Notes: generated from the sequence alone by a model not told the origin. A DNA stretch of 64,000 nucleotides from Candidatus Woesebacteria bacterium (GCA_035389185.1 DAOORK010000001.1:1006-65005); one strand, 5' to 3'; counted from the stretch's first letter, positions 5,620 to 41,800 are shown. Program-made: numbers and translations.

Positions 5620-6072
5620 ATGGCAAATTCTTGTAAGATGCCCGGATGTGGCGGAGTAATTGATATGGATAAAGATATTGTCTTGCAGACCGGATGTGAT
5701 TCGTATACGACCTTTTATGCCTGCGATAAATGCGGACGCGTCCACTCGTACGAAGGTGAATTGATTTTTAATCGTCCCGGTGCGGCTGCATATCGACGAG
5801 AGGACGGTAGCCTCGAGCTGGTTGAACCGATTTCTTTTGAAGTCGACAAAGCATTTGTCCCTGGAAAGAAATACAGAACGACTGCGCATGTGGATGTTTG
5901 TCTCGAAGGAACCGATGGAGAGTGTGTGGCTGCCGATCTGGTTGAGCCGGTAAACGGCACCATTTTGATCTTCGACAGCATTGATGGTGATAAGTATCGC
6001 TTCCATGTGGAAGACGGCACTGAGTACCATCTGCACGCCAATGATCTAGACAAGATCGAAGAATTAAATTAG
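5620..6072 (+). CDS. hypothetical protein with N-terminal Cys4 zinc ribbon
   Basis: AGGAGG RBS; CxxC...CxxC in the first 40 aa; intrinsic terminator at 6082-6107. Confidence 0.55.
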   Translation: MANSCKMPGCGGVIDMDKDIVLQTGCDSYTTFYACDKCGRVHSYEGELIFNRPGAAAYRREDGSLELVEPISFEVDKAFVPGKKYRTTAHVDVCLEGTDGECVAADLVEPVNGTILIFDSIDGDKYRFHVEDGTEYHLHANDLDKIEELN

Positions 6073-6081
6073 TTTGAATAT

Positions 6082-6107
6082 GCGAGGGGTAAAACCCTCG
6101 CTTTTTT
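6082..6107 (+). terminator. intrinsic terminator
   Basis: gcgaggg-gtaaaa-ccctcgc hairpin followed by TTTTTT. Confidence 0.7.
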
Positions 6108-6261
6108 GTGGTTTGCAGGAGTGGAAGGAATCGCCAATCAGTAAAATTCTGCTGAATTTTCTTCTTGGCACACCTCAGCGCCGGTCGTGCTTCCGGTTTT
6201 CCGATTTCTCCATTACTCTATAAACAAAAAGTTCCCCGTAAAGGGGAATCTTTTATTTATG

Positions 6262-6332
6262 CAGGAGTGGAAGGAATCGGACCTTCATCACAGGTTTTGG
6301 AGACCCGGATTCTACCGTTGAACTACACTCCT
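6262..6332 (-). tRNA. tRNA-Trp (anticodon CCA)
   Basis: Hand-folded cloverleaf: 7-bp acceptor AGGAGTG/CACTCCT, D-arm GTTC/GAAT with GG in the loop, anticodon stem CGGGT/ACCTG with loop CTCCAAA, T-arm GAAGG/CCTTC; the T-loop TCCGATT is slightly atypical. Confidence 0.65.
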
Positions 6333-6405
6333 AAGTACTCTCGTATTTTAGCAGAAATGGAGGCGAAACGTGTGTAAAAAACCCTCCCGAAGGGGAGGGT
6401 GCAAT

Positions 6406-6909
6406 CTATTTTGGTGAAGGGTACTCGAGAACCTTGTTGGACATGAAGACAAGTTCGATACCAACTTGGCGAAACATCTCTTCAGACTCAGCACCAGCAT
6501 GGTATTTTTGTTCGCAGACAACTCGTCTAATACCGACACCGATGATAAGCATGGCACAGACCCGACAAGGAGTCATGCGGCAGTAAAGAGTGGTGTCTTT
6601 GATGGAGACGCCAATACGAGCGGCTTGAACAATAGCGTTCTGTTCGGCGTGAATGGTGCGAACGCAGTGTTGGGTGACGTCGCCGTTCTCGTGAATGGTT
6701 TCTTTTATCTGGTGGCCAACGTCATGGCAGTGCGGCAGACCCGGCGGTGAGCCGACATAGCCGGTGACCACAATGTGATTTTCGTGGACGATAACACAAC
6801 CGACCATGCCGCGGTCACAAGTGGCTCTTTCGGCAACGGTATTGGCTATTTTGATGAAATACTCATCCCAGGAAACACGCGGGGGTGTTACGGGCTGATC
6901 TGTCAAAAT
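6406..6909 (-). CDS. comEB: dCMP deaminase (cytidine/deoxycytidylate deaminase family)
   Basis: HAEQNAI and PCxxC zinc-binding motifs; start placed at TTG (6909) downstream of AAGGAGG rather than at the far-upstream ATG. Confidence 0.8.
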   Translation of the reverse strand: MLTDQPVTPPRVSWDEYFIKIANTVAERATCDRGMVGCVIVHENHIVVTGYVGSPPGLPHCHDVGHQIKETIHENGDVTQHCVRTIHAEQNAIVQAARIGVSIKDTTLYCRMTPCRVCAMLIIGVGIRRVVCEQKYHAGAESEEMFRQVGIELVFMSNKVLEYPSPK

Positions 6910-27676: not shown

Positions 27677-27787
27677 GTTTCAACCAACCGAAGGGATAAA
27701 ACCCTTCGGTTTTTTGTGGTTTGACAAACACCCTATAAAATGTTAATATATGGCCGCAAGTTAAAATTTTTTCAGGAGGTTGGATAG

Positions 27788-28234
27788 ATGATCAAATATC
27801 GTTCAAGAGTAAAAGCATGGTCATTTTTTGGGGCGACTATTTTTGGTATTTTTCTTATGGTTGAGATACTTGCGTTTAGTTTTGCAGATTGGTTTTTATT
27901 AGTGATGTGTACGATCATATTTACTCTCTGTATCTATAGCCTCGACAAGTTTTTATGTGAGATGAAACTTCCGACCTTGCCGCGGGAAACCAAACCGGAA
28001 CGCCAAACCCTCGAAATTAGTCTTCGGAACGAAGGATACTGCCGGTATGTGGGATCTCACAATGTGGTGTCCAAAAAGGCGGCTGTTTTCCAGCTCGACA
28101 AGAAGAGTGAAGAGCAAACGATTTTGGCGACCAGCGAGATTACCCAACATGAGGGCTACCGATTTTGGGACTTCGGTCCGTATCGTTTAGTATCTCGTGC
28201 GGATGAATCTACATGGGTAGCGTACGTGAAATAA
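27788..28234 (+). CDS. two-TM membrane protein, paralog 2
   Basis: Same architecture with LPTLPRETKPERQTLEISLRNEGY; preceded by a duplicated promoter/terminator module. Confidence 0.55.
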   Translation: MIKYRSRVKAWSFFGATIFGIFLMVEILAFSFADWFLLVMCTIIFTLCIYSLDKFLCEMKLPTLPRETKPERQTLEISLRNEGYCRYVGSHNVVSKKAAVFQLDKKSEEQTILATSEITQHEGYRFWDFGPYRLVSRADESTWVAYVK

Positions 28235-28345
28235 GTTTCAACCAACCGAAGGGATAAAACCCTTCGGTTTTTTGTGGTTTGACAAACACCCTATAAAATG
28301 TTAATATATGGCCGCAAGTTAAAATTTTGTGCGGAGGTATAAACA

Positions 28346-28810
28346 GTGGTTATTCATCGTTCAAGAGATCGTGTATTAATTGCCAGCATTGGCGAAACCT
28401 TCTTTATATCATTTTTAATTATCTGTCTCAGTTTTACTAAAGAGACGATATTATCAATGAAGTCACCTTGGGAATATGTTTTTCTGATTGTTATTTTGGT
28501 TATCGCAGTTGTGTTCTTTCTCTGGGTGTTACTTTGTGAGTTTAATCGTCCTCTGTTACCCAAGCAAACTCAGACCGAACGGCAGGAGTTGGAAAGCTGG
28601 CTGGCCAGCGAAGGCTATCGCAAGTTTTGGGGAACGATCTCCCGAAAAGACGGAGTGATTACCTTCAGGCTGGACAAATGTCGTGATCCATATCCTGAAA
28701 ATGGAATTAAACCAATGGAGCACGGTAATTACGTGTACTGGGACTTTGGTCAGTACAGGATAGTCAGACGCCTTGATCTCTCGATCGATTCCGAGGCGTA
28801 CGTGAAATAG
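28346..28810 (+). CDS. two-TM membrane protein, paralog 3
   Basis: GTG start after CGGAGG; LLPKQTQTERQELESWLASEGY. Confidence 0.5.
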   Translation: MVIHRSRDRVLIASIGETFFISFLIICLSFTKETILSMKSPWEYVFLIVILVIAVVFFLWVLLCEFNRPLLPKQTQTERQELESWLASEGYRKFWGTISRKDGVITFRLDKCRDPYPENGIKPMEHGNYVYWDFGQYRIVRRLDLSIDSEAYVK

Positions 28811-38316: not shown

Positions 38317-38695
38317 TTGGAAAAGTATAAGTATGATGTGTTTCTGATCTGTCCGGTGCGGAATGCTTCTGAGGAACAAAAAGCCTAAGATGGCTACTTA
38401 CATTAAGAGTCTTGAGGATGCCGGTAAGACAGTTTACTACCCGGCCCGCGATACTAATCAAGAGGACTCTTTGACTGGAGGCTACAGAATCTGCCTCGAC
38501 AACACTACCGCAATTAGAAATGCCAAGGAAGTGCACATCTTTTTTGATCCCAAGAGCACAGGGTCGAATTTCGATTTTGGAGTGGCTTTTGCCCTGAAGA
38601 AAGAGATCGTGATTGTCAATCCTGGAGATCTGGTTTTGACAGAAGGTAAGTCGTTTGACAACATGCTTAACTTCTGGAGTAAATTGAAGAAGTGA
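38317..38695 (+). pseudogene. nucleoside 2-deoxyribosyltransferase-like gene interrupted by a +1 frameshift in an A5 run
   Basis: AAGGAGG+TTG opens MEKYKYDVFLICPVRNASEEQKA* (38317-38388); removing one A from caaaaag joins it in frame to ORF 38363-38695 (..YYPARD...GVAFALKKEIVIV), giving the NDT fold signature. Confidence 0.5.
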
Positions 38696-38744
38696 TCTTT
38701 CGACCCCCCCCTCGTAATAGGGGGGCTTTTCTTGCCCTATATAC

Positions 38745-38773
38745 TTGACACTACTGACTTGTTGTGATATACT
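38745..38773 (+). promoter_or_regulatory. sigma70-type promoter with extended -10 (TTGACA-17-TGaTATACT)
   Basis: -35 TTGACA at 38745-38750, TG at 38765-38766, TATACT at 38768-38773. Confidence 0.55.
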
Positions 38774-38779
38774 ACGATC

Positions 38780-39332
38780 TGTTCTGTGCTTAACAGCACG
38801 GCGAACATTGACTTCTTCCACTCTTTACCCCTCTTAGTCTGGGACAATCCCAGTTGCTGACTACGGTTAAAATCATTTATCGGTAGAACTGTAAACTCTG
38901 CGTCTGAGCGAATCCTTGGAATATATGCCCGGATACTGGCCTGTCGCGCTAAGCGCCACCGGCCCACCCGCCAAGTAAATTGGCTGGTTATCTCTCGGGC
39001 TCTTGACATGATCCACCAAGCAAAGCTCGACGCAAAACTAAGACAAGAGAAAGCTGTAACCGACAAGATGCACGGCCTCAAAGCGCTTCGGTCCTAATGG
39101 CCGGCCCCCGATCCTCGCCGCTTTCCCTCATATGTATAGGGTCCTGACTGAGCACACAACGTGTGTGATCGGTGATATAAGCGACGTACAATAGCGCTCC
39201 AGCTGTGAAGTATTAAGAGTGGAAGAAAAATAACCGTCGGCCTCCTGGCAATGTTGCCAGGAGGCCAAACCATTTGATTAGTTAGTGTCTCGTTGTCAGC
39301 CTTTTCAACTTAGTTGGGAAGGCTGTTTTTTT
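38780..39332 (+). ncRNA. candidate structured noncoding RNA (identity unassigned; RNase P RNA and tmRNA considered)
   Basis: About 550-nt ORF-free, GC-enriched stretch in an AT-rich genome; strong promoter; ends with a 13-bp hairpin and a hairpin plus T7 terminator. Confidence 0.4.
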
Positions 39333-39423
39333 GGAAAAGATACTTGATTTTTATTATATAGGGTGGTAAACTACAGATCCAGTTAGAGGAATTCTCCTCT
39401 GAACATTCAAATTGGAGGTTTGT

Positions 39424-39522
39424 ATGCCAAACATGAAGATCTGGAGTTATGATAGCTCCGACGACAGTGATCATTCGTCAGACGATGAATCGAACACAAC
39501 TCCGGAAATGTTCGGATCATAA
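39424..39522 (+). CDS. small acidic peptide (32 aa, hypothetical)
   Basis: GGAGG RBS 6 nt upstream; MPNMKIWSYDSSDDSDHSSDDESNTTPEMFGS; hairpin terminator at 39547-39571. Confidence 0.3.
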   Translation: MPNMKIWSYDSSDDSDHSSDDESNTTPEMFGS

Positions 39523-39590: not shown

Positions 39591-39695
39591 ATGGTGAAAA
39601 TAAAAGAAAAAGTCTTGTATTGTAATCAAGATCAGGATGTAGATACTAACGATGATTCTTCAGCTGATTCGGGTAGAACCGTTGAAACTGAGTAG
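39591..39695 (+). CDS. small acidic peptide (34 aa, hypothetical)
   Basis: AAGGAG RBS; MVKIKEKVLYCNQDQDVDTNDDSSADSGRTVETE; terminator at 39705-39735. Confidence 0.3.
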   Translation: MVKIKEKVLYCNQDQDVDTNDDSSADSGRTVETE

Positions 39696-39793
39696 TGATG
39701 ATTTAAGCCACTCAATAAAATGAGTGGTTTTTTGTGACAAAAACAAAGATGGTAGAATACCCAAGTCATTTTTAATGTATATTTTTAAGAGTA

Positions 39794-41800
39794 ATGAAGA
39801 AACTAGTTATTGTTGAGTCTCCAACCAAAACAAAAAGCCTTGCAAAATATTTAGGGGCGGATTTTGTGATCCTGGCCTCGATGGGCCATGTGCGTGATTT
39901 ACCTAAGAGCAAGTTTGGTATTGAGATCAAGGATGAAGGAAAAAGGGAGTACGACTTTGTTCCCAGCTATGAACTAATGAATGGTAAAGGTGAGCAGGTG
40001 AAGAAACTCGAGGATGCGGCTTCCAAAGTAGACGAAGTGATACTGGCTTCCGATCCGGATCGCGAAGGAGAGGCAATTGCTTGGCATGTAGAACATATTC
40101 TAAAAAATTCAAGAAAACTGGCCAACAAAGACAAGTTGGAGTTTAAGAGGATTGCTTTTCACTCGATTACCAAGGAAGCGATTCTGGAGGCTTTGGAACA
40201 CCCAAGAGGTATCGATATGAACTTAGTTGACGCCCAGCAAGCAAGGCGTTTCTTAGACCGTTTGGTGGGTTACAAGCTTTCGCCAATTCTGTGGAAGAAA
40301 GTACGTCGTGGTTTGTCGGCAGGTCGCGTACAGAGTGTGGCGGTAAGGCTAATTGTAGAAAGAGAACGGGAGATCGAAAAGTTTAAGCCGGTGGAGTATT
40401 GGCAGATAAAAGTGTTGGTAGAAACGATTAGGGGAGAAAAATTTGAGTTAGAGCTGGCTAAAATAAAAGGTAAAAAAGCAGATGTTCATGATGGAGAACT
40501 GGCCAAGAAGGTGCTGGAGGTTTTGGAGAAAGCGGAGTATCTGGTCAAAGACATCAAAAAGTCTGAAAGAAATGCTGCACCCCATCCGCCATTTAAAACG
40601 TCAACTTTACAACAGGCTGCAGCTAACGTTTTGGGCTGGTCGGCTAAAAAAACAATGAATGTGGCCCAAAGACTTTATGAGCAAGGTGACATTACTTATC
40701 ATCGTACGGACTCATTTAACTTGGCGAGTACAGCTATCGAGACTGTAAGAAAGTATGTTAGTGAAGTTTACGGAGCAGAGTACTTGCCGATAGCTCCGCG
40801 CTTTTACAAGACAGGGAGCAAAGTGGTTGCCCAAGAGGCACACGAGGCGGTTCGGCCAACCCATATTGAAGTAAGCCCGGATAAGTTTACCGGACAAGAA
40901 ATGGCCCATGATCAGGAGAAGCTTTATTCACTAATATGGAGAAGAACTGTTGGTTGTCAGATGAGTGATGCCTTGTTTGATGATACAAAAGTAGTCGTAG
41001 CGGCAGGAGAAACTGAGCTGACAGCGACGGGCGAGACGGTAAAGTTTCCGGGATGGAAAAAGCTATTTTTGAAGGACAAAGGGGAAGAGCCTGTTTTACC
41101 GGAGATGGCAGTTGGGGACAGCTTAACCAAGAAAAAAGTGATTGGTGAGCAAAAGTATACCCAACCCCCAGCTAGATACAATGACGCCTCAATTATCAAG
41201 GAACTGGAAAAGAGGGGAATCGGTCGTCCATCTACTTATGCGGCAATTATCTCTACGATTATCGAGAGAAGATACGTTGAGCAGAGAGAAAAGAAGTTTT
41301 TTCCAACTTCGATTGGGATGGCAGTAGTTGATTTTTTGATGGCAAACTTCCCCCAAGAGATGGATTATGAGTTTACCGCCAAAATGGAAGACTCTCTCGA
41401 TGATATCGCGGATGGCAAGTTAAACTGGAAAAAAATGCTGTCTGCATTTTGGGATAAGTTCAAAGAAAGAATTGTTAAGGTGGACAAAGATAGTGCCAGA
41501 GTAGGTGTACCGGCTGTAGAAACGGGCAGAAAGTGTCCTGAGTGCGATAAGGGAAAAGAGGTAATCCGTGACGGGAAATATGGCAAGTTTTTGTCGTGTT
41601 CACTTTATCCGGAATGTAAGTACACAGCACCATTTATTGAGTATGTTGCCGGAGTGAAGTGTGAGAAGTGCGGGAAGAGAGTGGTTTTGAAAAAGACCCG
41701 GGCGGGAAAAGATTTTTATGGCTGTGAAGGTTATCCAAAATGTACATGGGCCAGTTGGCACAAACCAGGGACAAAGAAGGAAGAAGAATCCACAGAGTGA
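39794..41800 (+). CDS. topA: DNA topoisomerase I
   Basis: TOPRIM (IVESPTKT, DPDREGE), catalytic Tyr region (TYHRTDS), three C-terminal C4 zinc ribbons. Confidence 0.9.
   Translation: MKKLVIVESPTKTKSLAKYLGADFVILASMGHVRDLPKSKFGIEIKDEGKREYDFVPSYELMNGKGEQVKKLEDAASKVDEVILASDPDREGEAIAWHVEHILKNSRKLANKDKLEFKRIAFHSITKEAILEALEHPRGIDMNLVDAQQARRFLDRLVGYKLSPILWKKVRRGLSAGRVQSVAVRLIVEREREIEKFKPVEYWQIKVLVETIRGEKFELELAKIKGKKADVHDGELAKKVLEVLEKAEYLVKDIKKSERNAAPHPPFKTSTLQQAAANVLGWSAKKTMNVAQRLYEQGDITYHRTDSFNLASTAIETVRKYVSEVYGAEYLPIAPRFYKTGSKVVAQEAHEAVRPTHIEVSPDKFTGQEMAHDQEKLYSLIWRRTVGCQMSDALFDDTKVVVAAGETELTATGETVKFPGWKKLFLKDKGEEPVLPEMAVGDSLTKKKVIGEQKYTQPPARYNDASIIKELEKRGIGRPSTYAAIISTIIERRYVEQREKKFFPTSIGMAVVDFLMANFPQEMDYEFTAKMEDSLDDIADGKLNWKKMLSAFWDKFKERIVKVDKDSARVGVPAVETGRKCPECDKGKEVIRDGKYGKFLSCSLYPECKYTAPFIEYVAGVKCEKCGKRVVLKKTRAGKDFYGCEGYPKCTWASWHKPGTKKEEESTE

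Follow-up and report, generated by a model that had tools for sequence, protein, structure and literature searches.

We asked what is encoded by a GC-rich interval lying upstream of topA in a 64,000-nt stretch of CPR DNA (hereafter the window), which the first-pass annotation had proposed to be a large structured non-coding RNA (ncRNA) with its own promoter, its own terminator and no ORF. CPR/Patescibacteria genomes are tiny and hold little spare DNA, and to our knowledge almost nothing is known of their ncRNAs beyond rRNA, tRNA and introns. Our answer is that positions 38780-39332 (+ strand) probably constitute an independently transcribed, lineage-restricted, accessory gene for a structured non-coding RNA that acts as RNA. 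All the sequence features listed in the earlier proposal were found, and its core is borne out by folding statistics, homology and covariation: the unit has a promoter and a terminator, folds far better than chance allows, is homologous at its 5' end to elements in related genomes, carries compensatory changes in three helices (H1, H2 and LR1), and gives no protein or Rfam signal.

The unit lies between a small NDT-like gene (38363-38695, with its terminator at 38706-38725) and two small acidic-peptide genes (pep1 and pep2). Its promoter (38745-38773, + strand) had been described as near-consensus with an extended -10, and indeed scores 11/12 plus the TG of the extended -10: a -35 box TTGACA (38745-38750), a 17-nt spacer, TG at 38765-38766 and TATACT at 38768-38773, with an A/T-rich CCTATATAC block immediately 5' of it. 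The pattern TTGACA-N14-TGnTATAnT is the genome's normal strong promoter; it occurs at 13 sites with up to two mismatches in the 64-kb window, vs 2 expected, and 38745-38773 is the sole perfect copy. Related elements, described below, begin with the same (C)TTATATACTTGACAAAT promoter. Placing the start by the -10 box and the end by the terminator gives a predicted transcript of ~553 nt (38780-39332, + strand). The intrinsic terminator (39297-39332, + strand) consists of a 13-pair stem, its hairpin spanning 39297-39325, followed by T7 (U7 in the RNA), and is led by a GUCAGCC common to the window, L086 and L159 (L numbers denote the collected loci). A 13-bp perfect hairpin reported near the 3' end is likewise present, as GGCCUCCUGGCAA / UG / UUGCCAGGAGGCC at 39239-39266 (+ strand); no U-run follows it on this strand.

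The locus stands out from its surroundings in composition, as the first-pass annotation had noticed. Its GC content is 0.495 over 38780-39332 and 0.535 in the core (38901-39270), compared with 0.429 for the window, which places the locus at the 99th percentile among equal-sized segments of the 64 kb. The GC skew, at -0.06, lies below the window median of +0.23 and below the ~+0.23 to +0.3 of the surrounding coding DNA; a skew near zero is the expectation for a paired RNA. When folded, the + strand reaches a minimum free energy of -198.5 kcal/mol, compared with -157.6 ± 6.9 kcal/mol in dinucleotide shuffles (z = -5.9; 0/100 shuffles fold as well), while four coding controls of the same length from the same window give z values of -0.9 to +1.1. 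The many local hairpins that had been listed could all be located: gtgcttaacagcac falls within H1 (38784-38801), ctgggacaatcccag is H2 (38839-38853) and cacacaacgtgtgtg lies at 39153-39167. As a separate observation on composition, 553-nt segments of the window peak in GC (0.515) at ~6000-6900, in a stretch that starts beside tRNA-Trp (6261-6332).

By its TopA relatives, this genome is that of a Candidatus Collierbacteria (Microgenomates, CPR), a group in which the gene order mreC, small ORF, PBP2, gap, topA is conserved. The PBP2-topA gap, ~60 to 2600 bp long, contains essentially nothing in L004-L006, L080, L094, L162, L167 and L169, nothing but an NDT-like gene in L160 and L166, and nothing but a Band_7 gene in L172; elsewhere its cargo is variable, drawn from the NDT-like and Band_7 genes, small acidic peptides and promoter-to-terminator elements. 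The latter are ORF-poor, 290-690 nt long and in most cases raised in GC. All those tested beat shuffles strongly in folding, with z = -7.8 for L159, -5.4 for L086 and -3.8 to -11.9 for ten further elements at the site. The window element fits this family in position, lying on the + strand between PBP2 (or its NDT-like/Band_7 cargo) and the topA promoter. At 71-85% TopA identity the sequence of the element is replaced almost completely, and about a dozen relatives, examined at the syntenic site, lack it there. The family would be an uncatalogued one, restricted, as far as sampled, to Candidatus Collierbacteria, and its members are always found downstream of PBP2 and ahead of the topA promoter.

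The gap itself behaves as an insertion hot spot (L008, L009, L014, L083-L087, L095, L114, L171, L172). Besides the RNA, it can take up a Band_7/SPFH-type gene (~335-375 aa in length), acidic peptides and the NDT-like gene, each of them headed by an identical CTTATATACTTGACA promoter. A long stretch shared by L008, L009 and L014 was considered as an RNA and rejected, as it is the Band_7-type gene. In L164, positions 2504-2940 match L001:5510-5943 and represent an element of the L001 type from which the promoter, H1 and the first mini-ORF (see below) are missing; this copy starts directly after PBP2, indicating a recent deletion at its 5' side. The inverted repeats of the window element were also considered as the ends of a mobile element and rejected, being internal helices. 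No match was found by blastn against phages and plasmids, and scans of viral contigs for two motifs gave one chance match, inside a phage gene.

Despite the rapid turnover, the 5' 120 nt of the window element are homologous to those of six other elements: L079 (= L161), L082, L086 (= L097), L002, L171 and L159. The shared module, recognised first by side-by-side reading of the sequences, runs in the order H1, a pyrimidine-rich tract, UUAGUCUGGG-loop-CCCAGUU (H2) and an A/U-rich linker, the latter with the family consensus UUAAAAUCnUUUAUyGGU...CUGUAAACUC and represented in the window by GGUUAAAAUCAUUUAUCGGUAGAACUGUAAACUC (38865-38898, + strand). With the window sequence as the query, plain nhmmer recovered next to nothing from the relatives. 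A leave-one-out HMM, built from the six other members with the window excluded, gave a single match in the 64 kb, at 38823-38898 on the + strand (E = 1e-8), and in HMM searches over all collected loci the matches were confined to the syntenic spot. Confident alignment extends over seven distinct members, all of their sequences metagenome-derived, and covers the 5' 120 nt and the terminator region only; MAFFT placed H1 out of register across the members.

Two helices of this module are supported by covariation. H1, the 5'-terminal hairpin CUGUGCU / UAAC / AGCACGG (38784-38801, + strand), has 92% of its cells paired across the seven sequences, with two-sided changes in 3/7 pairs, whereas slid controls reach at most 39%. 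H2, the hairpin CUGGG / ACAAU / CCCAG (38839-38853, + strand) inside the UUAGUCUGGG...CCCAGUU block, is 100% paired, with two-sided changes in three of its five pairs and slid controls at no more than 55%. Compensatory cases in H2 include CUGGG/CCCAG in the window vs CAGGG/CCCUG in L082, and L002 vs L171; CUGGAGG/CUUCCGG vs CUGAAGG/CCUUCAG is such a pair of variants. The window H1 carries a U-G pair, which on the opposite strand would be a C-A mismatch, and the U-G pairs in H1 and H2 fit the + strand orientation only; the promoter and terminator, too, are on this strand alone.

A third helix, LR1, is long-range. Its 5' strand UUCUUCCACUCUU (38813-38825, + strand) lies in the pyrimidine-rich tract between H1 and H2, and its 3' strand AAGAGUGGAAGAA in a purine tract further downstream, at 39215-39227 (+ strand), so that the helix encloses ~390 nt of the RNA. 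It has 13/13 positions complementary, and no other long-range perfect inverted repeat in the window RNA is as long. L159 has a 12-bp LR1 involving the homologous 5' segment with a different sequence (ACCUUCCUAUUC / GAAUAGGAAGGU); none of 300 dinucleotide shuffles reached either length (13 bp for the window, 12 bp for L159). As LR1 is not significant in L086, L082, L002 and L079, it may be a feature of a sub-group only. A further long-range candidate, UUAGU/ACUAA, seemed conserved on visual inspection and was dropped, since the pyrimidine tract has many equal partners. Between the linker and the 3' strand of LR1 lies a variable core (38899-39214, + strand; GC ~0.54), rich in local hairpins that are thermodynamic predictions only: GCGC/UAA/GCGC (38946-38956), GGUC/CUAAU/GGCC (39090-39102), CCCU...AGGG (39125-39141) and CACACA/ACG/UGUGUG (39153-39167). 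Here the blocks common to the window, L159 and L086 are short only, for example CCUAAUGGCyGGCCC(C)GAUC.

Most of the related elements contain, in addition, very short ORFs of 6-9 codons with ribosome-binding sites, two to three of them possible per RNA, starting with TTG, GTG or ATG. The first mini-ORF reads MKK(E/K/A)(F/L)DKL-stop in L086/L097 (L086:1489-1515), L082 (328-354), L002 (5568-5594), L171 (near 2576) and, twice, L001 (5490 and 5741), the variants being MKKEFDKL, MKKELDKL and MKKKLDKL; L014 has MKKLLDKQ and L163 a 21-codon version, both read by eye. Its variation falls mostly on third codon positions, and members use different stop codons. A second mini-ORF, also of 6-9 codons, stops 1-6 nt 5' of a module that we call M3, GCGGAG-(variable hairpin)-AG(U/C)CGCGAAGAGAUGA, which may also be read as GCGGAG, a hairpin, AG(U/C)CGC and then GAAGAGAUGA. 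M3 is a two-helix module with a tandem purine mismatch, present in L086 (position 1696), L082 (479), L002 (5745), L171, L079 and, twice, L014 (3233), and its fold is identical in the seven instances while the inner-helix sequences are unrelated. No Rfam model recognises the arrangement of mini-ORF and M3. The pattern is strong evidence for a selected, structured RNA family, and the combination of ORFs bearing ribosome-binding sites with an M3 placed 1-6 nt after a stop suggests that the family engages translating ribosomes.

The window copy departs from this plan. It lacks three modules kept by most relatives, namely the first mini-ORF, M3 (no match in the window at up to three mismatches) and the GUUCCUUUUCGAGGGAAC hairpin, and has UGAGCG at the position aligned with the AGGAG ribosome-binding site of the relatives; within the RNA body there is no start codon with a ribosome-binding (SD) site. 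L159, whose TopA is among the closest to that of the window (85%), likewise has neither an SD-led mini-ORF nor M3. Both copies retain the promoter, H1, H2, LR1 and the terminator.

Several other readings of the locus have to be set against an RNA gene of a new family. The first-pass annotation had entertained RNase P RNA, tmRNA, SRP RNA, 6S RNA and intron identities, none of which finds support in Rfam 15, ARAGORN or synteny. A divergent housekeeping RNA would account for a transcript of this size, raised in GC and with a promoter and terminator of its own, and the short internal ORF of some relatives is superficially tmRNA-like; we give such an identity hardly any credence. At gathering score, Rfam 15 returned four tRNAs over the whole window and nothing at the locus; at E <= 10 on 38600-39500 it returned noise only (the best match, at E = 0.26, being to a 28-nt hairpin of an unrelated viral element), and on 13 related loci nothing at the elements. 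The RNase P covariance models RF00010/RF00011 (P1-P4 core, CR-I to CR-V) matched neither the window nor the related loci, and the models for SRP RNA, 6S RNA, group I/II introns, OLE, ROOL, GOLLD, raiA and HEARO gave no match. ARAGORN found no tmRNA in the window, only the four tRNAs, and neither it nor Rfam detected the tRNA-like domain of tmRNA (RF00023; acceptor stem, T-arm, 3' CCA). The ORFs of the relatives carry a ribosome-binding site and a start codon, unlike the tag frame of tmRNA, and the window copy has no short ORF of the tag-frame kind, without ribosome-binding site and start. The empty site in many close relatives and the near-complete sequence turnover elsewhere make a universally conserved housekeeping RNA a misfit, and it is the fallback option of the earlier proposal, a novel RNA, that survives these searches; our search of the literature on Patescibacteria and of Rfam 15 found no description of such an RNA. 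A protein-coding gene missed by the callers on either strand is very unlikely as well. In its favour are two minus-strand ORFs (114 and 59 aa) and a GC skew just below zero; yet the 114-aa ORF overlaps the + strand promoter and has no homologue among 5.8 billion proteins, the frames are not conserved in the related elements, and six-frame and ORF translations have no significant Pfam match, in line with the earlier view that the locus holds no credible ORF. That view had dismissed the minus-strand ORFs as low-complexity and as lacking a ribosome-binding site, and the absence of a ribosome-binding site is borne out. When six-frame segments were compared with the related elements by tblastn, the only similarity was that of the 5' domain, already seen at the nucleotide level. 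In L077 and L078, whose sequences are identical to the window at this interval, the callers left the interval empty in the former and in the latter placed a 172-aa minus-strand ORF that enters only the first 42 nt of the RNA.

The locus might instead be a transcribed relic, the hairpin-rich remnant, within a hot spot, of an ancestor that was a micro-peptide mRNA or a translation-coupled riboregulator (mini-ORF plus M3). This we consider unlikely, although it would account for the missing SD-led mini-ORF and M3 in the window and L159, for UGAGCG in place of AGGAG, and for the presence/absence polymorphism of the locus, with its 5'-truncated copy in L164. Against it, the only perfect consensus promoter in 64 kb has been retained, none of H1, H2 and LR1 is broken, and LR1 shows covariation between the window and L159, both of them ORF-less; moreover, the z values of -5.9 and -7.8 and the raised GC persist in a reduced, AT-leaning genome, from which unselected DNA would be expected to be lost. 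A cis-acting leader or regulatory RNA for the acidic-peptide genes and topA, working for example by conditional read-through of the terminator, is less probable still. The element does always lie directly upstream of topA or pep1-type genes, and the pep1 mRNA of L163 is headed by an H1-like UAGUCUG...CAGUU hairpin; but the RNA ends in a strong terminator (13 pairs and U7), pep1 and topA have promoters of their own, the same topA promoter and leader are kept in relatives without the RNA, and duplexes between the RNA and the topA leader are no better than in shuffles.

With every tested defining feature failing, the element belongs to none of the known systems with which we compared it. By analogy, it would work most like the orphan large ncRNAs (OLE, ROOL, GOLLD). 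With these and raiA it shares a length of several hundred nt, a stand-alone, lineage-restricted nature, structure above that of the surroundings, an orphan function, and its finding as a GC-rich, ORF-free intergenic region; it differs in having no covariance-model match, in a far faster turnover of sequence and domains, with almost nothing aligning at 85% TopA identity, and in occupying one fixed chromosomal site that is empty in many relatives. The sister elements resemble RNAIII/hld, SgrS/SgrT and SR1/SR1P in joining a structured RNA to a conserved, translated-looking ORF, although their ORFs have 6-9 codons and can number two to three per RNA, one of them directly before a conserved fold, and the window copy has no such ORF. 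A very short ORF with a ribosome-binding site beside hairpins also recalls the trp, erm and cat leader-peptide attenuators and uORF motifs, and the M3 of the relatives, 1-6 nt past the stop, is within reach of a terminating ribosome. Unlike in these attenuators, no regulated ORF lies downstream in the same transcript, the terminator looks constitutive, separate promoters precede pep1 and topA, and the window copy is without the short ORF. The CsrB/RsmZ sponges likewise evolve fast, form many hairpins, have a strong promoter and terminator and are conserved in short modules only, but the window family has no repeated loop motif such as GGA: a loop census of 20 elements found none shared, and the recurring loops CUAAU and UUCG are restricted to one subfamily. 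RNase P RNA and tmRNA are of similar size and similarly GC-enriched relative to the genome; the window element has neither P4/CR-I to CR-V nor a tRNA-like domain, model matches or conservation among relatives at the syntenic site.

In the reading that we favour, an accessory RNA gene, the product would work as RNA. The conserved 5' module would be its recognised or functional part, and the fast-changing, GC-rich core, closed by LR1, would serve as a stabilising scaffold. Close relatives do without the element, hence its function would be accessory. It would most likely act by binding or titrating a protein or the translation machinery, rather than by catalysis, and it is the ribosome-engaging features of the sister elements that make titration the most plausible. 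As for direct pairing, complements of the conserved linker within the window extend to 11 nt at most, about the estimated chance level. The window copy and L159 would either have lost the mini-ORFs and M3 or never have had them. More tentatively, we suggest that the ancestral design may couple ribosomes to RNA folding, the window copy being an ORF-less derivative that uses the shared 5' module; if true, the family would represent a translation-sensing or ribosome-titrating device without a described counterpart. The element is dispensable and evolutionarily very unstable, as seen in its absences, the L164 truncation and a length of 290-690 nt, which also fits a decaying or selfish element.

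An RNA gene at this site is of interest in several respects. It would give the databases a new RNA family, in which a strongly folded RNA of 300-700 nt, under the best promoter of the region, is almost completely remodelled between close relatives. The natural series of variants, with and without mini-ORFs and with and without the M3 fold, makes its function testable. The locus also counsels caution in annotation, as a GC-rich, ORF-free locus of RNase P size with a promoter and a terminator need not be a housekeeping RNA.

The neighbourhood yielded further observations. The NDT-like ORF upstream had been taken for a pseudogene, a label that we drop: 38363-38695 is an intact 110-aa ORF with no sign of being a pseudogene, its homologues in L002, L014 and L092 are 57-64% identical, and the gene is called in L077, L160, L166 and L171 (110-126 aa, weak match to PF05014). 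From its sequence it looks like a conserved small protein. Downstream, pep1 (39424-39522) and pep2 (39591-39695) are minute and strongly acidic ORFs, and each of them has a separate promoter, ribosome-binding site and terminator. Both are probably real genes, given that homologues of pep1 (MPNMKIWSYDSSDDSDHSSDDESNTTPEMFGS) occupy the corresponding position in L082 (…DSSDDSDHSSDDEENTTPEMFGS) and L163 (…DDDDEEATFPEDFGS); the acidic peptides share a conserved C-terminal PE(M/D)FGS and in every case lie shortly before topA. The topA promoter and 5' UTR (GTAGAATAC..GTTTTTAATGTATATTTTTAAGAGTAATG, ~39750-39796) are nearly identical across Collierbacteria (L001-L014, L079-L097), where the intergenic DNA flanking this block is otherwise unalignable, and the block may be a conserved regulatory element of topA. 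We also considered GAACAUUGA as a common 5'-leader signal and rejected it, its other copies lying within coding sequence. Finally, identical 29-nt promoter-like copies of TTGACAAACACCCTATAAAATGTTAATAT occur at 27721-27749 and 28279-28307, 558 bp apart, each preceding an ORF of ~150 aa (27788-28234 and 28346-28810), which suggests a tandem gene duplication.
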